DNA from: an uncultured Candidatus Saccharibacteria bacterium
Lineage (GTDB): Bacteria > Patescibacteriota > Minisyncoccia > UBA9983
Length of the DNA stretch: 64,000 nucleotides
Direction of reading: 5' to 3'
NCBI GenBank assembly: GCA_964372755.1
Contig: CAYJQX010000004.1
Location: 10,766-74,765 of the forward strand
The notes under the pieces are model-generated. The model was not told where the DNA came from. It did not search any database and was given only the letters and a program-made list of their open reading frames with translations. Both the position numbers and the translations under genes were made by a program. Shown here piece after piece: positions 8,901 to 62,522 of this stretch. The number at the start of each line of letters is the position of its first letter. Positions within the stretch are counted from its first letter, which is position 1.

Positions 8901-9884
8901 GTGTATAAACAAAGAGATATGAATATTCCTCAAAATAACATCGATAATTTCGAAGAAAAATTTTCCAGAAGCATTTTTTTGATAGAAGTGGAAAAAATAA
9001 AACCGAATCCGATGCAACCAAGACGGGAGTTTGATCCGGAAGCTCTGGCTAATTTGTCCGAATCCATTCGCCAGTACGGCATTCTCCAGCCTCTTGTGGT
9101 GACAAGAAGAGAAACAGAGGTTGAGACTGGAACTTTGGTGGAATACGAACTTATCTCGGGAGAAAGAAGACTGCGGGCTTCTAAGCTGGCGGGCTTGTTG
9201 CAAGTGCCCGTTATCATCAGAAACGAGCACGGCAACAAAATGAAGCTGGAATTGGCCATTATAGAAAATCTTCAGCGCGAGGATTTGAACGCCATGGAGA
9301 GGGCTGAAGCTTTCCAAAAATTGGCCGAAGACTTTGACTTGCGCCACCACGAAATCGCCAACCGGGTGGGAAAGAGCCGAGTTTTTGTGACCAATACCAT
9401 CCGTCTCCTTACTTTGCCGGAAGACATGAAAGAAGCCTTGAGAAGGGGAGACATTTCGGAAGGGCATTGTCGTCCTTTGTTGATGCTGGTGGAGAGACCG
9501 CATGAACAATTAGCGTTATTTCAAGAAATGCTTGATCGGAAAATGACGGTAAGGGAAGCGGAGAGAATTTCTCGAAATATTGCCGTGGAGCGCTCAAAAA
9601 ACCATGGCAAAGAAAGCCCCATTGAGCTTCAAGCAAGAGAGGTGGCAAAAGAGTTGGCAGATTTTTTAGGGACGCGCGTTTTGGTTGAAGCTTTGGGAGA
9701 CAAAGGTGGCCGCATTCTGATTGATTTTTTTTCGCCGGAGGAGATGAGGTCTTTTTTAAATAGAGTCAAATTAGGAGGCAAAGAATCTATTCTTGATGAG
9801 GAGGTTGATCTTACGGAGGAAAACAAAAATGAATCCCAAGAAGAAAACAAGGGGCCCGATTATCTAACCTCTTTCTCCTTGTAA
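8901..9884 (+). CDS. parB: Chromosome partitioning protein ParB/Spo0J family
   Basis: The ParB N-domain is marked by ISGERRLRASKLAG. An HTH region follows, then a C-terminal acidic/dimerisation tail. TATAAT at 8888-8893 suggests the true start may be the internal Met (MNIPQ). Confidence 0.8.
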   Translation: MYKQRDMNIPQNNIDNFEEKFSRSIFLIEVEKIKPNPMQPRREFDPEALANLSESIRQYGILQPLVVTRRETEVETGTLVEYELISGERRLRASKLAGLLQVPVIIRNEHGNKMKLELAIIENLQREDLNAMERAEAFQKLAEDFDLRHHEIANRVGKSRVFVTNTIRLLTLPEDMKEALRRGDISEGHCRPLLMLVERPHEQLALFQEMLDRKMTVREAERISRNIAVERSKNHGKESPIELQAREVAKELADFLGTRVLVEALGDKGGRILIDFFSPEEMRSFLNRVKLGGKESILDEEVDLTEENKNESQEENKGPDYLTSFSL

Positions 9885-9889
9885 ATCTA

Positions 9890-11368
9890 TTATGAGGATT
9901 TTGGTTTTTTGGGTTTATCTTTGCGAAGGGAGGATTTGATGTGTCTTTTTGCCAGAGAAGTTGTTGCTTCTCGAATCCATTCCGGATTGGCTTTTTTGTT
10001 TTTTTGCGTTTTTATTTCCACCAAATCTCCGTTTTTAAGAGGCGTGATGAGGGCGCAATATTTATGATTTATGAAGGCTCCCGTGGCGGAATTGCCAATG
10101 TCGGAGTGGATTGCGTAGGCAAAATCTATGGCGGTGGCTCCTTCGGGCAGATCTATCACCTCACCTTTTGGTGTAAAACAAAAAACACGGTCATTGAAAA
10201 AATCGATTCGGAGGGAGTCCAAAAATTCTCTGGACTGAGTGGCATTTTTTTGAAGTTCAATCAACTGATTAACCCAGGCCATCTTTGGCTTTATTCGCGC
10301 TCCGTGTGAAGGTTTTCCTGATTCTTTATAACTCCAGTGGGCCGTGATGCCATGTTCGGCTTCTCTGTGCATTTCTTCCGTTCTAATTTGGATTTCCGTA
10401 ATCTTTCCGTCATTTGCAAAAACAGTTGTGTGAATGGATTGATACCCGTTTGGTTTAGGAATGGCGATATAATCTTTTATTTTCCCGGGAAGAGGTTTCC
10501 ATATTTTATGGACAACGCCCAAGGCTTTGTAACACTCTTCAATAGAAGGGACTATCACTCGAAGGGCAATCAGATCGTAAATGCGATTGATGTCCATTTC
10601 CTTTTCTGGTTCAAGTAATTTCTTGTAAACGCTGTATAGATGCTTTATTCTTGAATCTATTTCTAGGACCTTGACTCCTTCGACAAGAAGAGTGGCGTAA
10701 AGATTTTTCTTTATTTTCTCAAGAATTTTTTTCTGTGATTCCTCCTTTCCTTTTATTAGGTTTTTAACATAAATGAAATCTTTTGGATAAAGGTAAGCAA
10801 AAGCCAAGTCTTCCAGCTCGGCGTTTAGCTGACCCATACCAAGACGCTTGGCTAACGGAGCGTATATTTCGGATGTTTCCAGGGCGATACGTTTTTGTTT
10901 TTCATGAGGCAAGGCGGAGAGGGTCTTCATATTATGAAGACGGTCGGCAAGACGAATCAAAACGACTCGGATGTCCTCGGCCATGGCTAAGAACATCCTG
11001 CGAAGATTTTCCACCCGCCCTTCTTCACCTCGATATTTTAACTCGCCAAGCTTGGTTACCCCTTGAACTAAAAAAAGTATTTCATCGCCAAATTCTTTAC
11101 GGATGGCAAGCGTTGTATTGCCCAAAATCGGATGATCGGGAAAGTCTTCTATAACGTCATGAAGAAGGCCGGCAGATATAGTTTCGGCGTCCATCCCTAA
11201 TTCTGCTAAAGTTTTGGCGACAGAGGCAGGATGTTCAAAATATTTTTCTCCTGAAGCGCGAACTTGGTTTTTATGGGCAATCTCGGCGAATTTCCAAGCT
11301 TTGGTAATAAGCGGAATATCTTCCGGTTTAGAATTTTTCAGTGAGGACAGTATTTCTTCCAGGAGCAT
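9890..11368 (-). CDS. rel: (p)ppGpp synthetase/hydrolase of the RelA/SpoT family, short form (HD, synthetase and TGS domains; no ACT/C-terminal regulatory region)
   Basis: The HD motif is HPASVA...LLHDVIED. The synthetase motif is RIYDLIALRVIV...GYQSIHTTV. The TGS-like region is FTPKGEVIDLPEGATAIDFAYAIHSDIG. Only 492 aa are present. Confidence 0.88.
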   Translation of the reverse strand: MLLEEILSSLKNSKPEDIPLITKAWKFAEIAHKNQVRASGEKYFEHPASVAKTLAELGMDAETISAGLLHDVIEDFPDHPILGNTTLAIRKEFGDEILFLVQGVTKLGELKYRGEEGRVENLRRMFLAMAEDIRVVLIRLADRLHNMKTLSALPHEKQKRIALETSEIYAPLAKRLGMGQLNAELEDLAFAYLYPKDFIYVKNLIKGKEESQKKILEKIKKNLYATLLVEGVKVLEIDSRIKHLYSVYKKLLEPEKEMDINRIYDLIALRVIVPSIEECYKALGVVHKIWKPLPGKIKDYIAIPKPNGYQSIHTTVFANDGKITEIQIRTEEMHREAEHGITAHWSYKESGKPSHGARIKPKMAWVNQLIELQKNATQSREFLDSLRIDFFNDRVFCFTPKGEVIDLPEGATAIDFAYAIHSDIGNSATGAFINHKYCALITPLKNGDLVEIKTQKNKKANPEWIREATTSLAKRHIKSSLRKDKPKKPKSS

Positions 11369-41788: not shown

Positions 41789-42295
41789 TTGCCATCTTAT
41801 GTTTTTAAGCCTATAATTAAATCTATTATGCTAGAACCAGTTGAATATTTAAGCGAGGAAAGATTGGCCGAAATAAAGGCGGAATTACAAAAACTAAAAA
41901 CAGAAGACATTGCCGAAGTGGCCGAGAGGGTGGCTCACGCTAGAAGTTTGGGAGATTTAAGAGAAAATGCGGAATATCATAAAGCCAAAGACGATCAAGC
42001 GTGGCTTTTTAGCCGTATTTCTGATCTGGAAGGAATTCTAAAAAGAGCTTCTGTTGTAAAAAAAGGCAACACAGATGTTGTTTCAATGGGTAGTAGAATT
42101 GAGCTATTAAAAAGCGGAGCGGAAGAAAAAATTGTTTATGTTATTGTGAGCCAAGCCGAAGCCAATATAGAAGAAGGTAAACTCTCAAATACTTCGCCGC
42201 TCGGCGCGGTTCTTATCGGGAAAAGAGAAGGCGAAAATGTAACACTGGAAACTTCCAAAGGAAAAAATGTTTATAAAATAGTTTCAATAACTTAG
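41789..42295 (+). CDS. greA: Transcription elongation factor GreA
   Basis: An N-terminal coiled coil is followed by an FKBP-like C-domain (LGDLRENAEYHKAKDDQ). Confidence 0.9.
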   Translation: MPSYVFKPIIKSIMLEPVEYLSEERLAEIKAELQKLKTEDIAEVAERVAHARSLGDLRENAEYHKAKDDQAWLFSRISDLEGILKRASVVKKGNTDVVSMGSRIELLKSGAEEKIVYVIVSQAEANIEEGKLSNTSPLGAVLIGKREGENVTLETSKGKNVYKIVSIT

Positions 42296-42412
42296 GGTCA
42301 TGCGAACCTACGAATGCGCGCGAATGACGCGAATTAAGAAAGAAGGGATAGGAGGCAATTTTTGTCATCCGTAATATTCGCATACATTCACGCATTCGCA
42401 TTATACTTTTAA
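42296..42412. repeat. Hairpin-forming intergenic repeat, a diverged member of the family also found at 47690 and 61968
   Basis: It shares the cgaatg(a/c)cgc(g/t)aat core and an inverted-repeat structure (cgaatgcgcgcgaatgacgcgaatta ... taatattcgcatacattcacgcattcgcatta). Confidence 0.45.
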
Positions 42413-42414
42413 AT

Positions 42415-43884
42415 ATGTCCACATTTGATGAAATTAGAGAAGAAAGAATAAAAAAATTAAATGCTCTTAAAGAACATGGGCTTGATGCTTATCCGGCCAG
42501 AGTAGGAAAAATTTCTTCCATAAAAGAAATAGAGTCTTCTTTTATGGCACTGGTGGAATCAGAAAAAGAGATAAGCGTTGTTGGCCGTATCATGGCTTTG
42601 CGCGCCCATGGCGGGTCTATTTTTTTTGATATTTTTGACGGCTCGTCAAATGAGGCTTTCCAAGCTTATTTAAAGAAAGACGCGATAGAAGAAGAGACTT
42701 TTTCTTTTTTTGAAAAGTTTGTTGATATTGGTGACTTTATTTTTTTGACTGGGAAAGTTTTTCTTACGAAAAAAAATGAAAAAACTATTTTGGTTTCCAA
42801 ATGGGTTATGGTGGCAAAAAGTTTGAGACCTCTTCCAGAAAAATGGCATGGCCTGCAAGATGTGGAAGAGCGCTACCGCAAAAGATATCTGGACATCTTG
42901 TTAAATAAAGAAGTGAGAGAGAGCGTATATAAAAAATCAATTTTCTGGAATGCTTTTCGTAGCTATCTTTTGGAAAAAGGCTTTGTGGAAGTGGAAACTC
43001 CAATTTTGGAGAATATAACAGGCGGAGCCGACGCTAGGCCTTTTATTACCCACCACAACGCCCTTGACATAGATGTTTATCTCCGTATTTCCGCGGGAGA
43101 GCTTTGGCAGAAAAAATTAATGGTCGCGGGCGTTCCTAAAACCTTTGAAATAGGACGCATATTTAGAAACGAGGGTATTTCTCCGGAACATCTTCAGGAC
43201 TATACTCAACTGGAATTTTATGAATCCTACAAAGATTATGAAGAGGGTATGAAAATGGTGAAGGAACTCTATTGTGAAGTGGCGCAAAAAACTTTTGGCA
43301 CCCTGCGTTTTTCTATTAATGGCTTCGATATTGACCTGAATAATGATTGGCAAACATACGATTATGTTTCCTTACTGAAAGAAAAATACGGACTCAATGT
43401 CTTAGAGGCTTCGAGCGAAGAAATTAGAGAAACGGTTAGAAAGGAAGGTATCAAGCACGAAGAAAAAGAGATAAACAAAGAACGAGGCACCGACTTGCTC
43501 TGGAAAGCGATACGAAAAACCATTGCCGGACCGGGTTTCCTTATTAATGTGCCTGTTTATATGGAGCCTTTGGCAAAAAAATCAAATAAAGATCCAAGAG
43601 TAGTGGAAAGATTTCAAGTCATTTTAGCTGGAAGCGAAATGGGTAAAGGTTTTAGCGAATTAAACGATCCTCTTGATCAAGCGGAAAGATTTGCCCACCA
43701 AGACGCGCTTAGAGAGTCAGGAGATGACGAGGCGCAGATGAATAATCCAGATTTTGTGGAAGCTATGGAGTACGGCATGCCACCAAATTTTGGTTTTGGT
43801 GTCTCAGAACGCTTGTTTAGTTTTCTATCTGGTAAATCAGTGAGGGAAACCCAAATTTTCCCGCTCTTGAGGCCCAAAAATTAA
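42415..43884 (+). CDS. lysS: Lysyl-tRNA synthetase (class II)
   Basis: An OB-fold N-domain is present. Class II motifs are GRIFRNEGISPEHLQDYTQLEFY and GFGVSERL. Confidence 0.95.
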   Translation: MSTFDEIREERIKKLNALKEHGLDAYPARVGKISSIKEIESSFMALVESEKEISVVGRIMALRAHGGSIFFDIFDGSSNEAFQAYLKKDAIEEETFSFFEKFVDIGDFIFLTGKVFLTKKNEKTILVSKWVMVAKSLRPLPEKWHGLQDVEERYRKRYLDILLNKEVRESVYKKSIFWNAFRSYLLEKGFVEVETPILENITGGADARPFITHHNALDIDVYLRISAGELWQKKLMVAGVPKTFEIGRIFRNEGISPEHLQDYTQLEFYESYKDYEEGMKMVKELYCEVAQKTFGTLRFSINGFDIDLNNDWQTYDYVSLLKEKYGLNVLEASSEEIRETVRKEGIKHEEKEINKERGTDLLWKAIRKTIAGPGFLINVPVYMEPLAKKSNKDPRVVERFQVILAGSEMGKGFSELNDPLDQAERFAHQDALRESGDDEAQMNNPDFVEAMEYGMPPNFGFGVSERLFSFLSGKSVRETQIFPLLRPKN

Positions 43885-44589: not shown

Positions 44590-44745
44590 AGAAATAAATC
44601 ATAAATCCGAATATCGAAATCCGAAACAATGATTAAATTTTTCCTCGACAAAGCCTCGGAATGAATAAAATTTAGAAATAATTAGGATTTACTTGTTTCG
44701 TTCGCCAACTGGCGAATTCGTGCTTCGGATTTAAGTTAATTGTTT
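44590..44745. repeat. About 150-nt TIR-bearing intergenic repeat (copy 1 of 3; nearly identical copy at 53715-53870)
   Basis: aaatccgaaacaatgattaaatttttcctcgacaaagcctcggaatgaataaaatttagaaataattaggatttacttgtttcgttcgccaactggcgaattcgtgcttcggatttaagttaatt. The terminal inverted repeats are aatccgaaaca and tg(c/t)ttcggatt. Confidence 0.7.
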
Positions 44746-45988: not shown

Positions 45989-47689
45989 ATGACTGGTCGT
46001 TTTCGATTAATTTTTACGCTCATACTCGGGTTAGGTTGCCTGCTTGTGGTGAGGCTTTTTTTGTTGCAAATTGTCCATGCCAATTACTATAAAAATTTAG
46101 CGGAAAAGCAATATAACCAGACTTCTGCCAAGGATTTTTCAAGGGGCAACATATATCTTACTCAAAAGGACAGTAAAATAATTTCTGTGGCTGGCACAAA
46201 AAAGGGTTACCTTGTTTCTATAAAGCCAAAATCTATTGTCAATGAGGAAGAAACATATCAAAAACTTTCTTCTGTCATTGTTAATTTAAATAAAGATGAT
46301 TTTTTAACCAAGGCTTCAAAAAAGGATGATCCTTATGAAGAAATTGCCCACTATATTTCGGAAGAACAAGCGGAGAAAATAAAGAATTTAAAAATCCAAG
46401 GGGTCAGTTTGTTTGCCGAGTCGTGGCGATATTATCCGGCCGACCGGCTTGCTTCAAAAGTTTTGGGTTTTGTTGGATGGAAAGAAAAAGATTTAACGGG
46501 TCTCTATGGCATAGAAAAATCAAAAGAATTAATTTTAAGCCGTCTGAATTCAAAACCAGAAAACACCAATTCATTTTTTGAAATTTTCTTGGAAGCCAAA
46601 AGAAAAATTTTTTCAAACAGCGAGGAAGAGGGTGATGTTGTTTTGACTATCGAACCGCAAGTACAGCTTTCTTTGGAAAAAGAAGTGCAAGGAGTTTTAG
46701 AAAAGTATTCGGCCCAGTCGGCCGGAGGGATTGTGATCGAGCCAAAAACGGGAAAGATTCTTGCCATGACCGGCAAACCTGATTTTGATCCGAATAAATA
46801 CGGCGAGGAAAAAAACCATTCCGTTTTTTTAAACCCCCATGTCCAGAGCGTTTTTGAAATGGGTTCTATTGTGAAGCCTCTTACGATGGCTTCCGCTATT
46901 GATGCCGGAGCGGTTTTGCCGGAGACAGAATATATCGATGAGGGTTCTGTCACTGTTGACGGCCGGCTTATTTCAAATTTTGATGGAAAAGCTCGGGGGC
47001 GAGCCACCATGCAAGATGTTCTTAATAATTCACTAAATACAGGAGTAGTTTTTGTGATGAAAAAAATGGGTAAAGATGCTTTCCGCAACTATTTTAAAAG
47101 TTTTGGTTTTGGAGAAAAAACAGGAATAGACTTGCCCGATGAATTATCGGGTATAATCAAAAATCTTGACAGTCCAAGAATGGTTGAATATGCCACGGCT
47201 TCTTTCGGGCAGGGTATTGCCATGACGCCTATTCAAATGGTAACGGCTCTTTCGGCTTTGGGTAACGGGGGTTTGTTGATGCGTCCTTATGTGATAGAAA
47301 GATTGGAGTTTAAAGGAGGTTTAGATAAACAAACAAAACCGACAGAGATTAGGCGAGTTTTGAAGCCCGAAACTTCAAAGACAATTAGTGATATGCTGGT
47401 AACCGTGGTGGACAAGGCACTTTTAGGGGGAACTGTTAAACTGGAACACTATAGTATCGCGGCTAAAACAGGCACTGCCCAGATTAAAGGTCAAAATGAA
47501 GGATACTCGGAAGATCAATTCCTACATACTTTTTTTGGTTATGCTCCCGCTCGCGATCCCAAATTTTTGGTTTTTCTTTATGTTGAAAAACCGCAAGGAG
47601 TGGAATACGCTTCTCATTCACTCACTCCATTTTTTATAAACGAAATTAAATTTCTTTTGAATTACTATGATGTTCCGCCAGATCGATAG
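45989..47689 (+). CDS. ftsI: Penicillin-binding protein 3-like transpeptidase (FtsI)
   Basis: An N-terminal TM is present. SIVKP is the SxxK motif, SLNTG the SxN motif and KTGTA the KTG motif. The dcw-cluster position fits. Confidence 0.88.
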   Translation: MTGRFRLIFTLILGLGCLLVVRLFLLQIVHANYYKNLAEKQYNQTSAKDFSRGNIYLTQKDSKIISVAGTKKGYLVSIKPKSIVNEEETYQKLSSVIVNLNKDDFLTKASKKDDPYEEIAHYISEEQAEKIKNLKIQGVSLFAESWRYYPADRLASKVLGFVGWKEKDLTGLYGIEKSKELILSRLNSKPENTNSFFEIFLEAKRKIFSNSEEEGDVVLTIEPQVQLSLEKEVQGVLEKYSAQSAGGIVIEPKTGKILAMTGKPDFDPNKYGEEKNHSVFLNPHVQSVFEMGSIVKPLTMASAIDAGAVLPETEYIDEGSVTVDGRLISNFDGKARGRATMQDVLNNSLNTGVVFVMKKMGKDAFRNYFKSFGFGEKTGIDLPDELSGIIKNLDSPRMVEYATASFGQGIAMTPIQMVTALSALGNGGLLMRPYVIERLEFKGGLDKQTKPTEIRRVLKPETSKTISDMLVTVVDKALLGGTVKLEHYSIAAKTGTAQIKGQNEGYSEDQFLHTFFGYAPARDPKFLVFLYVEKPQGVEYASHSLTPFFINEIKFLLNYYDVPPDR

Positions 47690-47800
47690 TTCGACACCAA
47701 TACGCGAATGGACACGAATGACGCTAATGTAATACCAAGTCTTAACTTATTTCTTTATTAGTGACATTCGCGCGTATTATTTGTGTATTAGTGTCGGGTA
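47690..47800. repeat. About 110-nt hairpin/TIR intergenic repeat (family shared with 61968-62076 and 42296-42412)
   Basis: cgacaccaatacgcgaatggacacgaatgacgctaatgtaataccaagtcttaa...cattcgcgcgtattatttgtgtattagtgtcg. The termini cgacac(c/t)aatac and gtattagtgtcg are reverse complements. Confidence 0.7.
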
Positions 47801-47803
47801 AAT

Positions 47804-49111
47804 ATGATTAAATCAATTTTAAAAAAAATAATTTCTACAGTCCTCACTTTAGAGGCCCGTTTGGTTTTAAAAAAATACAAGCCGAAAATTATCGGTATAA
47901 CGGGAACGGTGGGAAAAACCTCTGTTAAAGACGCTATTGCCCATGTTTTGGCACTGAAATACCGAGTTGGCAAAAGCGAGAAAAGTTATAACAGCGAAAT
48001 AGGCGTGCCGCTTGCCATATTAGGGGAACAATCGGCATGGGGGAATGTCTTAGGTTGGGCGAATATTTTTTTGAAAGGCTTATCTCTTTTGATAAAAAAG
48101 AATAAATATCCGGAATACCTTGTTCTTGAAATGGGAATAGACAGGCCTGGCGACATGGATTCTCTTGTCCGTTGGGTAAAACCGCATATCGCAGTGGTAA
48201 CCGCCATTGGCGAAGTGCCCGTCCATGTTGAATTTTTTGAAAATGCCGAAGCGGTAGCTACGGAAAAGTCTAAAATAATAGAAGGACTTCCGAAAGAAGG
48301 TTTGGCCATTTTAAACGCCAATGATCAAGAAGTTTTATCCATGCGCAGAAAAACCTACGCCAGAGTGATGACCTACGGCTTAAGAGGAGAAACCACCGGA
48401 GCAAAAGGAGCGGATGTGGAAGCTTCTAATTACTCGTTAATGGAAGAAAAAGGCCGGCCGGCCGGTATTTCTTTCAAGGTTGAATATAACGGCAATATTG
48501 TCCCACTGAAAATAGATGGCATGTTTGGTTTACAAGCGGTTTTAAGTGTTTTGCCAGCTATTGCTGTTGGATTAGAGGAGGAAATTAACTTAGTCAGCAT
48601 AGTTCAAGCTTTAAGCGAGGTAAAACAACCGCCAGGCAGGCTTTTTCTTCTTGATGGAAAAGACGAAACTCTGATTATAGATAGTACGTATAATTCCTCG
48701 CCCCTTGCTCTTCAATCAGCTCTAGATGTTCTCTCTGAAATGAAAGCAAAAAGAAAATTGGCTGTTTTGGGGGATATGTTAGAACTAGGAAAATATACGG
48801 CCGAAGAGCACAGAAAAATAGGGATATATGCCAAGGGTAAAGCAGATATTTTGATCACTGTCGGTTTGAGAGCTAAGCTTACGGCTGATGAAGCCAAGAG
48901 GGTGAGACTAGGAGTAAAAAATATCCATAGTTTTAAAAATACAGAGGAAGCCATAATAAATCTGCCAAAAATTATCAAAAAAGGAGATTTGATTTTAGTG
49001 AAAGGTTCTCAGGGTATGAGAATGGAAAAAATTGTTGAAAGTTTGATGGCAAATCCAGAGAAGGCAAAGGAGTTGCTTTGCAGACAGGAAAAGGAGTGGA
49101 AGGGAAGATAA
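47804..49111 (+). CDS. murF: Mur ligase, most likely MurF (UDP-MurNAc-tripeptide--D-Ala-D-Ala ligase)
   Basis: IGITGTVGKTSVKD is the P-loop. IDSTYNSSPLAL corresponds to the MurF DDSYNANP motif. The dcw position fits. No separate murE is present here. Confidence 0.7.
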   Translation: MIKSILKKIISTVLTLEARLVLKKYKPKIIGITGTVGKTSVKDAIAHVLALKYRVGKSEKSYNSEIGVPLAILGEQSAWGNVLGWANIFLKGLSLLIKKNKYPEYLVLEMGIDRPGDMDSLVRWVKPHIAVVTAIGEVPVHVEFFENAEAVATEKSKIIEGLPKEGLAILNANDQEVLSMRRKTYARVMTYGLRGETTGAKGADVEASNYSLMEEKGRPAGISFKVEYNGNIVPLKIDGMFGLQAVLSVLPAIAVGLEEEINLVSIVQALSEVKQPPGRLFLLDGKDETLIIDSTYNSSPLALQSALDVLSEMKAKRKLAVLGDMLELGKYTAEEHRKIGIYAKGKADILITVGLRAKLTADEAKRVRLGVKNIHSFKNTEEAIINLPKIIKKGDLILVKGSQGMRMEKIVESLMANPEKAKELLCRQEKEWKGR

Positions 49112-53714: not shown

Positions 53715-53870
53715 AAAATAAATCAAAATTCGAATATCAAAATCCGAAACAAAGATTAATTTTTTCCTCGACAAAGCCTCGGAGTGAATAAAATTTAGAA
53801 ATAATTAGGATTTATTTGTTTCGTTCGTCAACTGGCGAATTCGTGTTTCGGATTTAGCTTAATTTTATCT
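53715..53870. repeat. About 150-nt TIR-bearing intergenic repeat (copy 2 of 3). It fills the convergent rplU|recR gap.
   Basis: Near-identical to 44590-44745 (aaatccgaaacaaagattaattttttcctcgacaaagcctcggagtgaataaaatttagaaataattaggatttatttgtttcgttcgtcaactggcgaattcgtgtttcggatttagcttaatt). Confidence 0.7.
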
Positions 53871-54491
53871 TCTTCCTTCCATCGCGGCGGCAATTGTATC
53901 GCGGTCGCTGTATTCTAATTCAGACCCTGTAGAAAGCCCTCGCCCTAAACGGGTGATTTTTATTTTCGGAAATTTAGAAATAATAATCGGGGCAATAGTT
54001 TGATCCTCAATGACGCGGGCTGTTAATTCTCCTTCAAGCGTGGCGCTGGTGGCCAGGATGATTTCTTCCAAGTCTTTACCGGATTTTTGAATTCGATTAG
54101 CCAATTCTTTCAGGCGAATAGATTCTCTGGATTTTCGCGAACTTAAGCTGGTTGGCATAGCTCCACCCAAGACAAAATATAACCCTTTGTAAGCTCCGGA
54201 AGCTTCTATGACTTCTAGATCGGCGTCTTTTTCCAAAATCATGAGAGTATTTTTTTCTCGGTCTGGGTTTGCGCAAATTGGGCATAGATAAGCTTCGTTG
54301 TCTTTCTTGCCGAATATTTTGAAACACATCCGACAGCGTCCCACTTCGCTTTTTATTTTTGTAATCAGCGAGGAAAGTTCGTTTATATATTCGTTGTCCG
54401 CGGAGAAAATAAAATTAGCAAAGCGTTTGGCTTGTCTAGGGCCGATGCCGGGGAATTTTAAAAATAGTTCCGTAAGACGGTCTAAAATCAT
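53865..54491 (-). CDS. recR: Recombination protein RecR
   Basis: The HhH region is LKFPGIGPRQAKRFA. The C4 zinc finger is CRMC...CPICAN. A Toprim domain is present. Confidence 0.92.
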   Translation of the reverse strand: MILDRLTELFLKFPGIGPRQAKRFANFIFSADNEYINELSSLITKIKSEVGRCRMCFKIFGKKDNEAYLCPICANPDREKNTLMILEKDADLEVIEASGAYKGLYFVLGGAMPTSLSSRKSRESIRLKELANRIQKSGKDLEEIILATSATLEGELTARVIEDQTIAPIIISKFPKIKITRLGRGLSTGSELEYSDRDTIAAAMEGRR

Positions 54492-54527: not shown

Positions 54528-54590
54528 AAAGGATTTATTTGTTTCCTTCGCCAACTGGCGAATTCGTGCTTCAGATTTTGATTTGTTATT
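54528..54590. repeat. Partial copy (3' half) of the 150-nt repeat family
   Basis: ggatttatttgtttccttcgccaactggcgaattcgtgcttcagattttgatttg matches the 3' half of the copies at 44590 and 53715. Confidence 0.5.
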
Positions 54591-54599
54591 TTTTTACTT

Positions 54600-60698: not shown

Positions 60699-61964
60699 GT
60701 GTGGATAGCTACTCTTTGCAATAATAGGGAAGTGAAAATCTGGAAGAAAATCAGCCAAACAATCCTCATCTCTATTTTAGTCGCCTCCTCATTTGTTGGG
60801 GGCGTTTATTTGGGATATTCAAACAGGCCAAGTACCCAAAAAATTTTGAATATCGTTGGCAAGGAACCCCCAAAAATTTCAGAAACAAATGTAGATTTTA
60901 CTCCGTATTGGGATGTCTGGGGTGAGGTTAAAGAAAAATATGTTGACCACGAAAACATAAAAGACGACAAACTCTTGTGGGGTTCTATAGAAGGAATGGT
61001 GAAATCTCTAGGGGATTCTTACTCTGTTTTTTTCCCGCCACAGGAAGCCAAGGAATTTCAAGAAACTGTTGCTGGTAATTTTCAGGGAGTAGGGATGGAG
61101 ATTAGCACCAAAGAAAACGTTTTGACGGTAGTAGCTCCAATAAAAAATTCCCCGGCCTACAGGGCAGGTATTAGACCGGGTGATAAAATTATTAAAATAG
61201 ATGATATTCCGTCGGCAGATTTTTCCTCCGAAAAAGCCGCCAGACTTATAAAGGGCGCTCAAGGAACAAAGGTGCGCCTTACCATTTTTCGTGAGGGAGT
61301 AGACGAACCGTTTGAAGTTTCGATTATTAGAGATTTTATTGAAATACCGATTATTGATACAGAAAAAAAAGACGAAGGTGTTTTTGTTATTCGGCTTTAT
61401 AGTTTTTCGGCCAATGCCGGAAATGCTTTCAGGGGCGCTCTGAGAGAATTTGTAGAATCCGGAAGCAATAAATTGATTCTTGATTTGAGAGGCAATCCGG
61501 GAGGTTATCTAGAAAACGCCATTGATATTTCCAGCTGGTTTTTGCCTTTAGGGGAGGTGATTGTTAGAGAAAAATTTGCCGATGGCCGTGAAGAATTGTA
61601 CAAAAGCCGTGGATATAATATTTTTAAGAGTCTGCCTATTGTGATTCTTATAGACGGCGGTTCTGCTTCGGCTTCAGAAATTTTGACGGGAGCGCTGACT
61701 GAACACGGGAAAGCGAAAACAGTGGGAGAAAAAACTTTTGGAAAAGGTTCCGTGCAAGAACTTGTTCCGTTTGCAAATGGGACATCTTTAAAAATCACCA
61801 TTGCCAAATGGTTTACTCCCAAAGGAATTTCTCTTTCAGAAAATGGCTTAAAACCTGATTTTGAGGTAAAACCCGCAAAGGATAGTGGCAAAGTAGGGCA
61901 ATATGGAGACAGACTAGTTGATCCGCAGATGGATAAGGCGTTGGAATTATTAAAGAGTAAATAA
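60699..61964 (+). CDS. ctpA: Carboxyl-terminal processing protease (S41 family) with PDZ
   Basis: An N-terminal TM is present. The PDZ region is GIRPGDKIIKIDD. The S41 catalytic-region motifs are LDLRGNPGGYL and IDGGSASASEI. Confidence 0.85.
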   Translation: MWIATLCNNREVKIWKKISQTILISILVASSFVGGVYLGYSNRPSTQKILNIVGKEPPKISETNVDFTPYWDVWGEVKEKYVDHENIKDDKLLWGSIEGMVKSLGDSYSVFFPPQEAKEFQETVAGNFQGVGMEISTKENVLTVVAPIKNSPAYRAGIRPGDKIIKIDDIPSADFSSEKAARLIKGAQGTKVRLTIFREGVDEPFEVSIIRDFIEIPIIDTEKKDEGVFVIRLYSFSANAGNAFRGALREFVESGSNKLILDLRGNPGGYLENAIDISSWFLPLGEVIVREKFADGREELYKSRGYNIFKSLPIVILIDGGSASASEILTGALTEHGKAKTVGEKTFGKGSVQELVPFANGTSLKITIAKWFTPKGISLSENGLKPDFEVKPAKDSGKVGQYGDRLVDPQMDKALELLKSK

Positions 61965-61967
61965 ATA

Positions 61968-62076
61968 ACCCGACGCCAATACACAAATGAATACGAATGA
62001 TACTAATGTAATACCAAATCTTAATTTTCCCAGATTCGTGTCATTCGTGCGTGTTATTTGCGTATTAGTGTCGTTA
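61968..62076. repeat. About 110-nt hairpin/TIR intergenic repeat (same family as 47690-47800)
   Basis: ccgacgccaatacacaaatgaatacgaatgatactaatgtaataccaaatcttaa...cattcgtgcgtgttatttgcgtattagtgtcg aligns along its length with the 47690 copy. Confidence 0.7.
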
Positions 62077-62078
62077 TT

Positions 62079-62522
62079 ATGAAATTAATTTTAATTCAAG
62101 ACGTGCCGAAAATAGGCCGAAAATATGAAATAAAAGAAGTAAAAGACGGATTTGCCAGAAATTTTCTTATGGCAAGAAATTTAGCAATTCCTTGGACTCT
62201 TGAAGCGGAAAAAAGTTTTTCTTTAAAAATCAAGCAAGCAGAAGAAACGAAAAAATCTAGAGAAAATGATCTAGAAAAAAATCTTGATCTTTTGAATGAT
62301 TTTAAAATTATTTTTTCCCGCAAGGCCAACAATGAAGGCCATCTTTTTGCCGGTATAAAGTCCGAAGACATCGTGAAATTTCTGGAAAAAGAGAAGGGAA
62401 TTATTATCCCGGAAAACATCTTAGAGATGTCTCAGCCGATAAAAACGCTGGGAGAACATAAAATAAAGGCAAGGAACAAAATTTTAACAGTAGAAGTTCA
62501 AAACGAAAAAACAACCAAATAA
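62079..62522 (+). CDS. rplI: 50S ribosomal protein L9
   Basis: MKLILIQDVPKIGRKYEIKEVKDGFARNFL is the canonical L9 N-domain. ATG 62079 directly follows the repeat. The track start at 62058 lies inside the repeat. Confidence 0.88.
   Translation: MKLILIQDVPKIGRKYEIKEVKDGFARNFLMARNLAIPWTLEAEKSFSLKIKQAEETKKSRENDLEKNLDLLNDFKIIFSRKANNEGHLFAGIKSEDIVKFLEKEKGIIIPENILEMSQPIKTLGEHKIKARNKILTVEVQNEKTTK

Follow-up and report, generated by a model that had tools for sequence, protein, structure and literature searches.

The DNA analyzed here is a stretch of 64,000 nucleotides (nt), referred to below as the window, from contig CAYJQX010000004.1 (positions 10,766 to 74,765, forward strand; assembly GCA_964372755.1) of an uncultured Candidatus Saccharibacteria bacterium, and the subject is a family of palindromic hairpin repeats that occupies three gene junctions in it. 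A preliminary description, made from the sequence alone, had placed these repeats at 47690-47800, 61968-62076, and 42296-42412. All three were found at essentially these positions, with cores at 47692-47796 (copy A) and 61971-62073 (copy B); the third site, taken at the time as a more diverged relative, proved to be a degraded member of the same family (copy C). The gene labels proposed for the junctions were confirmed by NCBIfam, which identified GreA|LysS around copy C (greA|lysS), a SpoVD/FtsI-type penicillin-binding protein (PBP)|MurF around copy A (ftsI|murF), and an S41 CtpA-like protease|L9 around copy B (ctpA|rplI). The features, in window coordinates, are as follows:

42293-42295, + strand: TAG stop codon of greA
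~42303-42405, + strand: copy C, decayed family member (left arm 42310-42334, right arm 42376-42401)
42415-42417, + strand: ATG of lysS
45989-47689, + strand: FtsI/SpoVD-type PBP gene, with its TAG stop codon at 47687-47689, 2 nt upstream of copy A
47692-47796, + strand: copy A, 105-nt imperfect palindrome (left arm 47692-47730, loop ~47731-47754, right arm 47755-47796), identified by sequence, arm hidden Markov model (HMM; E = 6e-12 and 6e-9), and RNA fold
47804-47806, + strand: ATG of murF, 7 nt downstream of copy A
61962-61964, + strand: TAA stop codon of the S41 CtpA-like protease gene, 6 nt upstream of copy B
61971-62073, + strand: copy B, 103-nt imperfect palindrome (left arm 61971-62008, right arm 62034-62073), identified by sequence, arm HMM (E = 2e-10 and 8e-9), and RNA fold
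62079-62081, + strand: true ATG of rplI (L9), 5 nt downstream of copy B

Because the match to the L9 family covers a TTG-initiated open reading frame (ORF) at 62058-62522 only from residue 8 onward, the rplI start was assigned to the ATG at 62079. The L9 start codon, which had been said to abut this copy, lies 5 nt after it.

Copies A and B were compared by repeat alignment. As previously noted, the two copies align, with 84% identity in the left halves (57 nt) and 88% identity in the right halves (40 nt). Their termini, CGACRCCAATAC and GTATTAGTGTCG, had been described as mutual reverse complements, which they are save at one C/A position. Prediction of secondary structure, which had been suggested as a check, gave long hairpins for copy A (-39.7 kcal/mol, z -5.9) and copy B (-32.6 kcal/mol, z -5.2) relative to dinucleotide shuffles, and both strands of these copies folded with about equal stability. 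The fold of copy C was weak, with a z of only -1.9 to -2.6. The spacer ahead of copy B, ATAACC, corresponds to the usual left flank of the family, TAAC-N. No fourth copy was found in the window with nhmmer or with the arm HMM. In Rfam, only five tRNAs of the window reached the gathering score and none of the elements did; the E-value mode gave chance hairpin matches far below gathering. The repeat also interrupts assembly: the first letters of one Logan contig that encodes an identical MurF fall within the right arm of copy A.

Each arm of the family consists of four tandem units of 9-10 nt (CGACACYAAT-ACACGAAT-nnCACGAAT-GACACGAAT), and the other arm is the complement. The arms are ~39 nt long and most elements measure 73-118 nt, the shortest being two arms almost without a loop. 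An arm HMM was constructed from 138 arms of other organisms only, with zero window sequence. This model detected the four arms of copies A and B at E = 6e-12 to 8e-9, over the full length of the family arm, and the left arm of copy C at E = 4e-5. In copy C, the outermost CGACACYAAT unit is gone and only units 2-4 match. These results indicate that the three window copies share the arms of, and belong to, one family present in other organisms.

The distribution of the family was surveyed with pattern scans. A two-terminus pattern, applied to one representative genome per species, gave five clear elements: two in one metagenome-assembled genome (MAG) of Saccharibacteria and a third in another, with single elements in a MAG of Paceibacterota and in an unclassified one. 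A partly similar element was found in the same scan (L005; collected loci are numbered with the prefix L), and a match in a gammaproteobacterial MAG (L006) was rejected as an unrelated perfect palindrome. A one-arm pattern matched at least 120 metagenome contigs, many of the listed ones apparently derived from groundwater, as judged from contig names, and had no matches in viral contigs. In the collected loci, 86 two-armed elements were paired by the arm HMM, and most "solo" arms were elements with a diverged second arm. The elements are dispersed singletons, with 2-4 copies per locus in L023, L073, L051, L118, and L129 and three in the window. The two 109-nt copies in L023 are almost identical in unrelated flanks, and primary sequence is conserved between Saccharibacteria and Paceibacterota.

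Some members of the family enclose a gene. Five elements measured 418-450 nt, each with an ORF of ~126-131 amino acids (aa), and an ORF of the GxxExxY family was located between or abutting the arms in L087, L128, L089, L091, L065, L031, L117, L110, L129, and L132. The cases in L031, L117, and L110 came from a six-frame scan and those in L129 and L132 from contig look-ups; the count of such loci is at least 10. The ORF matches TIGR04256 (E = 1e-21 to 1e-23) and PF13366 (PDDEXK_3; E = 2e-21 to 2e-23). It starts at an ATG in the left arm (..CGA ATG AAA ACG AAT GAC ACA AAT..) and mostly ends at a TAA in the right arm (..ATT CGT GTT ATT CGT GCC AAT TCG TAA). The right arm thereby encodes a C-terminal strand, IRVIR, together with an ANS tail and the stop codon. 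The next gene starts 2-8 nt past the right arm in the seven cassettes checked (L087, L128, L089, L091, L065, L129, and L132); in L129, for example, the order is nusG-TAA-CT-[cassette]-ATGTA-ATG-rplK. The full-length cassette is thus a unit of ~420-450 bp in which two ~39-nt inverted arms surround one GxxExxY gene, whose product of ~125 aa is a predicted PD-(D/E)XK-fold nuclease.

GxxExxY/PF13366 is a large and often multi-copy family. A protein search with the cassette nuclease returned 335 homologues of 125-133 aa, the named ones being from the Parcubacteria group of the Candidate Phyla Radiation (CPR; Patescibacteria). In an alignment of 42 sequences, the C-terminus (..NFRNKYLKPIRVIRANS) was nearly invariant, and it is coded by the right-arm units ATT CGT GTT ATT CGT. 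In the AlphaFold model (mean predicted local distance difference test score of 85; predicted template modeling score of 0.77), the IRVIR segment (residues 124-128) is one of the strands of the fold, and the arm-encoded N-terminal tail is disordered. A sequence search of the PDB with the cassette nuclease gave no match. A fold search gave weak, generic PD-(D/E)XK matches (lambda exonuclease, Cas4, and tRNA-splicing endonucleases), with a best E of 3e-3 and template modeling scores of ≤0.51. The function of PF13366 was listed as unknown in a 2012 survey of the superfamily (PMC3424549). Because the right-arm units encode a structural strand of the protein, the arm sequence is constrained by coding, and hairpins that keep the units without coding are for this reason taken as the derived form.

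Three GxxExxY genes on plasmids of non-CPR bacteria were inspected. On the Bernardetia plasmid NZ_CP147018.1 (L137 1451-1901), the gene is flanked by 28-nt inverted repeats that are 86% complementary and contain CACAGAGA units, and the left repeat holds the AAGGAG ribosome-binding site of the gene. On the Treponema plasmid NZ_AP025289.1 (L136 1449-1909), the flanking inverted repeats are 16 nt long and 88% complementary. Both genes sit between co-directional genes. No flanking inverted repeats were found around the gene on a Persicobacter plasmid, the third case. The arm-flanked GxxExxY architecture may therefore be general beyond CPR.

The placement of the elements was determined with a set of 81 non-redundant short elements. 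A long ORF starts within 20 nt of one end in 70 of the 81, most often at 5-8 nt; in four elements, starts are present at both ends, and 66 have one start. A co-directional ORF stops upstream in 47 of these 66, and the stop lies 0-8 nt before the element in 41 of the 47 (mode, 2 nt). Around the core, the flanks form a palindromic consensus, TAAC-N on the left and N-GTT(T/A) on the right. The median residual spacer, taken as the sum of the stop-element and element-start distances, is 11 nt (≤17 nt in 40 of 45 cases), compared with a median of 57 nt (from crude gene calls) for co-directional spacers without an element. The tight fit is real, and random intergenic insertion would favor long spacers. 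Junctions with an element comprise 51 co-directional, 5 divergent, and 4 convergent cases (n = 60), and junctions without an element comprise 320, 36, and 53, respectively (n = 409). Co-directional placement, to which the preliminary description had drawn attention and which is seen at all three window sites, is thus the background make-up of junctions and not a preference of the element. What sets the elements apart is instead that they nest precisely between a stop codon and a start codon. The full and gene-less forms mostly share the orientation of the flanking genes.

Several loci hold a single arm. Solo left arms in L129 (17506-17545) and L106 (910-942) lie directly after a stop codon, and the ATG of the arm (CGAATGACACGAAT) is the start of the host gene, which is argS in L129 by annotation and GatB/YqeY-like in L106 by eye. 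The left arm behaves as a portable translation start region. At three related loci (L040 1301-1339; L108 9214, minus strand; L029 691, minus strand), one arm is in frame inside a gene judged YebC-like from its C-terminus (..LEDADLEKL..NEEVHEVVTNAE), to which it adds residues such as LDTNTRMGANDANGE.

In the window, only ~10 of the 58 called genes have any Shine-Dalgarno (SD)-like 4-mer upstream, and the upstream regions are A/T-rich. Translation initiation in this organism seems to proceed largely without SD sites, and since the host rarely uses them, the lack of an SD site between hairpin and start is unremarkable. In copy B, the left-arm ATG opens a 31-codon ORF (61987-62082) that spans the entire hairpin and terminates in a TGA that overlaps the rplI ATG (ATGA). 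Among 66 elements, a conserved mini-ORF through the hairpin was inconsistent: 25 terminate close to the start, 28 stop before that, and 8 lack an ATG.

Orthologous junctions were compared among related loci, whose flanks are only ~72-75% identical, so that exact boundaries cannot be read off. In the pilB-pilT-pilC loci of L002, L023, and L073, whose flanks share 72-76% DNA identity, the pilB|pilT junction is always occupied by an element. The pilT|pilC junction is empty in L002 (AGA TAA CAT ATG) and filled in L023 and L073, with the same PilT end residue in all three. At rpsL|rpsG, L050 is empty, with a 13-nt spacer (..GAA AAA TAA CAATTTCTAATTT ATG), and L060 and L068 are filled; S12 in L060 (3449-3486) and L068 (7913-7950) has lost its own stop codon and ends six codons into the left arm (..KKEK-ATPIRE*). 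The groES|groEL junction is filled in L007; L010 holds a different hairpin there and a family element upstream of groES. The element is thus patchily present at orthologous junctions.

The greA|lysS element is also present in two relatives, whose LysS proteins are 79% and 76% identical. Both of these elements are less decayed than copy C and have kept more terminal units. The greA|lysS insertion is thus old and eroding. The nearest named match of the window LysS is from Gribaldobacteria, followed by Paceibacterota at ~60-63% identity. By this similarity the source organism itself belongs to CPR, and the family as a whole is large and confined to genomes of CPR type. The adjacent PBP2|greA junction measures 130 and 220 nt in the two relatives and 1 nt in the window, and in L139 this spacer visibly holds another hairpin family. 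The mreB|holB junction, which is 26 nt in the window, carries in L139, a close relative, a 535-nt insert (1303-1837) with a short ORF containing two CxxC motifs and no family arm.

The pairing of the arms was evaluated with RNAalifold. In 23 short elements, 23 pairs were predicted, of which 6 contain compensatory A-U/G-C substitutions, each of them at the R position of a unit; these changes partly follow the "ACAC" and "ACGC" subfamilies. Complementarity of the arms is therefore maintained, though the changes do not tell at which level. The preliminary description had counted the absence of further copies in the genome and of structural conservation as grounds for abandoning its proposal. Hundreds of copies occur in other genomes, and the compensatory changes preserve the pairing, so that neither ground applies. 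Of the transition mismatches between the arms, 173 would give a G.U pair on the antisense strand and 108 on the mRNA strand (P = 1e-4). C in the left arm and A in the right arm were found at position 7 in 32 elements and the reverse in 11, the majority having the same polarity as the gene-bearing cassettes. A second marker of polarity, a GTAA stop in the right arm, was distributed 12 versus 4 (P = 0.08), and AATG counts showed no polarity bias.

Taken together, we consider it probable that the window sites are gene-less members, similar to miniature inverted-repeat transposable elements (MITEs), of a palindrome-armed cassette family of CPR bacteria, that is, internally deleted remnants of a selfish single-gene cassette. 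The cassette would be a selfish unit without a promoter of its own, transcribed by read-through from the operon, and its ORF would be translated in series with those of its neighbors. The GxxExxY nuclease may mediate the spread of the cassette, and loss of the enclosed gene would have given rise to the hairpin copies. In the mRNA, arm pairing could bring the upstream stop codon and the downstream start codon within a few nucleotides of each other, which would explain why insertion is tolerated in essential operons such as ftsI|murF, rpsL|rpsG, groES|groEL, and nusG|rplK. The window copies are probably inert passengers. The stem of ~35 bp is the only route by which they might have an effect, possibly as a target of RNase III, a modulator of translational coupling, or a partial barrier.

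Several observations weigh against this interpretation. The GxxExxY gene was not found in any of the three copies or anywhere in the 64-kb window. When the window loops were aligned locally with six full cassettes, no consistent resemblance to the gene interior emerged, so that an origin of these copies by deletion in situ is putative. We infer both the mobility of the cassette and the activity of its nuclease, and the matches of the fold search are generic. No target-site duplication was found in the flanks, in within-genome copy pairs, or at the two empty sites inspected. The boundaries of the element are approximate, and the TAAC-N and N-GTT(T/A) flank consensus could belong to the element or to the target. 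The polarity is a bias of ~3:1 and not a rule. The excess of mismatches that favor antisense pairing weakens the idea of a selected mRNA hairpin. Finally, elements persist at one junction across lineages whose flanking genes are ~73% identical in DNA, which could reflect host function as well as slow decay.

The persistence just described is among the points that would favor an RNA element serving the host, which is unlikely in our estimate. By this explanation, the hairpin would be an RNase III site, a device coupling stop and start codons, or a partial attenuator, and the link to GxxExxY would be secondary, for instance through insertion of the gene into an older hairpin. The stems are stable at ~35 bp, the R position of each unit undergoes compensatory A-U/G-C change, and the stop and start codons stand at the foot of the stem with a residual spacer far below background. 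The pilB|pilT copies are kept in three lineages and the greA|lysS copy in three relatives, the 31-codon mini-ORF of copy B overlaps the rplI start, and start selection in an SD-poor host may depend on local structure. However, G.U-type mismatches are enriched on the antisense and not the sense strand, and primary sequence, beyond structure, is conserved across Saccharibacteria and Paceibacterota. The element is patchy at orthologous junctions and its old copies decay, the mini-ORF pattern is inconsistent, and divergent and convergent junctions are occupied roughly as often as such junctions occur. Moreover, the coding of a structural nuclease strand by the right arm speaks for a hairpin derived from the cassette rather than the reverse. 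The preliminary description had favored such a host device, including attenuators that uncouple expression. Neither RNA processing nor attenuation was borne out: the G+C-rich stem, short loop, and U tract of an intrinsic terminator or attenuator were not found at the three sites, the consensus scan that flagged none of them having a loop limit of 3-8 nt that makes it a weak test for long composite stems, and the mismatches favor antisense pairing. The tails after the window hairpins are GGTAAAT and TTATTAT, and a sigma-70 promoter consensus scan did not flag the window elements. Since the same arms enclose a nuclease gene elsewhere, the copies are better read as remnants of a selfish cassette than as a host-built device, and a role in RNase III processing or attenuation might arise as a side effect of the ~35-bp stem.

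The remaining explanations are far less probable. A site of integron attC type, or of another tyrosine recombinase, in which folded single-stranded DNA marks cassette boundaries, is very improbable. Sites of attC type have a size range similar to 73-118 nt and carry the boxes RYYYAAC and GTTRRRY. Most elements are of this size, their flank consensus (..AAC-N[core]N-GTT..) recalls the R''/R' boxes, one strand (the bottom strand) pairs better, and the gene-bearing form is a compact, promoter-less single-gene unit. Nevertheless, the elements are flanked by core operons whose synteny is conserved (the dcw cluster, rpsL-rpsG, groES-groEL, nusG-rplK, and pilB-pilT-pilC) and not by arrays of cassettes, they are dispersed singletons with a primary sequence that, in contrast to attC sites in general, holds across phyla, and the only associated gene encodes a PD-(D/E)XK protein and no integrase, although integrase genes were not searched systematically. 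Equally little, and if anything slightly less, speaks for palindromes of the repetitive extragenic palindrome (REP)/bacterial interspersed mosaic element (BIME) type or derived from the insertion sequences IS200/IS605, moved by a Y1 (HUH) transposase such as the REP-associated tyrosine transposase (RAYT). Dispersed intergenic palindromes without a visible target-site duplication and with an orientation bias relative to gene direction would suit this origin. However, one hairpin of ~80-105 nt with four tandem units per arm contrasts with a REP palindrome of 20-40 nt, the termini (CGACAC..) are without a GTAG head, and the gene between identical arms is PF13366 and not a Y1 transposase. The label "REP-like" in the preliminary description thus holds loosely, for dispersed palindromic intergenic repeats, and not by the definition of REP. 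Chance similarity or low complexity without a real family is next to impossible. The genome is AT-rich (39.7% GC) and short inverted repeats are common in it (344 pairs), but the window-free arm model recognized the window arms, and the pattern matches in other genomes and metagenomes were each paired with a complementary arm; these two results already refute it.

A bolder interpretation of the same cassettes is that the arms and the GxxExxY gene constitute a previously unrecognized class of mobile or self-excising elements of ~430 bp, with a minimal PD-(D/E)XK nuclease as the sole protein. We regard this as doubtful. It may be a very small type of transposon that targets the stop-start junctions of operons. 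Alternatively, the cassette may be removed at the RNA level, with the arms as substrate and its own nuclease or RNase III as the cutting enzyme. In Bacteroidota and Spirochaetota, too, inverted repeats flank GxxExxY genes, and the same logic may therefore hold for the family across bacteria.

Among known systems, the remnants of a gene-bearing cassette proposed here most resemble bacterial MITEs and co-transcribed intergenic palindromes, of which ERIC/IRU in enterobacteria, Correia/NEMIS in Neisseria, and RUP/BOX in pneumococci are examples. Both are imperfect palindromes of ~75-150 bp with terminal inverted repeats and many dispersed copies, lie in transcribed intergenic sites where folding in mRNA is possible, and are in both cases best accounted for by internal deletion of a gene-bearing relative. 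Like MITEs, the elements described here are short and non-coding, occur in dispersed multiple copies, and show filled and empty sites. A longer element with the same ends, in which the arms enclose a GxxExxY/PF13366 gene, was present at no fewer than 10 loci, and its product may or may not be a mobilizing enzyme. The elements differ from MITEs in that no sequence relation was seen, no duplication of TA or another target site accompanies them, each arm has four tandem units of 9-10 nt, the elements are nested within a few nucleotides of stop and start codons, and the gene-bearing relative encodes only a PD-(D/E)XK protein of ~125 aa and no known transposase family.

Other selfish elements share single properties with the cassette. 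The complementary ends of intervening sequences (IVSs) in 23S rRNA form a stem that RNase III cuts, and the host product still works. The ORF family of the Coxiella IVS, S23p, is a four-helix bundle and different from PF13366. The 23S rRNA IVS of Coxiella burnetii is described as a selfish element with a small ORF, S23p (PMC4990558). Like it, the cassette is a putatively selfish element of ~430 nt with one small ORF inside an essential transcription unit; the present elements differ in lying between protein-coding genes and not in an rRNA helix, their excision by RNase III would be hypothetical, and an element of the 23S IVS type was accordingly rejected. Homing copies an element to one allelic site, and I-Ssp6803I is a homing enzyme of the PD-(D/E)XK fold. 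Like free-standing homing endonuclease genes, the cassette places a small nuclease gene between host genes and is patchy at orthologous sites; unlike them, it occupies many unrelated junctions per genome and has long inverted arms and gene-less hairpin derivatives. Rickettsia palindromic elements (RPEs) can lie in frame inside coding regions. The arm in frame within the YebC-like gene and the S12 extended by six arm-encoded codons are similar, whereas the present copies are mostly intergenic, are unrelated in sequence, and have a gene-bearing form.

Candidate assignments to REP/BIME with RAYT (a 20-40-nt palindrome, a GTAG head, and a Y1 transposase) and to an attC array were set aside on the features given above; for attC, the AAC/GTT flank consensus and the better-pairing bottom strand are present, the core-operon flanks and singleton copies do not fit, and no dedicated integrase search was made. 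Tandem interspaced guide RNA (TIGR) arrays consist of tandem units adjoining a Tas gene, with variable spacers of 8-12 nt flanked by box C/D motifs; TIGR-Tas is common in CPR, and one type of array consists of palindromic stem-loops (PMC12045711). The present elements also occur in CPR genomes. A TIGR-Tas array was rejected because they are dispersed singletons with conserved units and have no spacers, box C/D motifs, or Tas gene.

Hairpin families of the same plan were also observed at stop-start junctions of related CPR genomes (L010 5178-5248; L139 9265-9394 and the loop of 9870-9990), with tandem short units such as ATTCGCGAAT or TGAATCA/TGATTCA. In L139, one hairpin of another family is nested inside the decayed greA|lysS element. 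The window itself holds another palindromic family at 44603-44741, 53726-53864, and 54530-54593, with an inverted pair at 44730-44772/54487-54529 and units such as AAATCCGAA/TTCGGATTT. Its members occupy the mraZ-rsmH interval and flank a recR-like gene (53865-54491, minus strand) on either side, next to rplU and dnaB.

In the open-access literature on CPR palindromic elements and MITEs, GxxExxY, PDDEXK_3, and PF13366, neither the arms nor the hairpin family was found to be described, and a nuclease cassette nested between stop and start codons is apparently undescribed. The GxxExxY/PF13366 family hereby gains a concrete context as the sole gene of a palindrome-armed cassette. The cassette also explains a class of repeats at which CPR assemblies break. 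These repeats mislead gene callers, in that starts are called inside the arms and S12 and YebC-like proteins carry arm-encoded residues. The reduced and tightly packed genomes of CPR bacteria tolerate inserts within operons such as ftsI-murF, rpsL-rpsG, groES-groEL, and nusG-rplK if these are placed exactly between the stop and start codons, and how translation passes across such inserts in SD-poor bacteria becomes a directly testable question.

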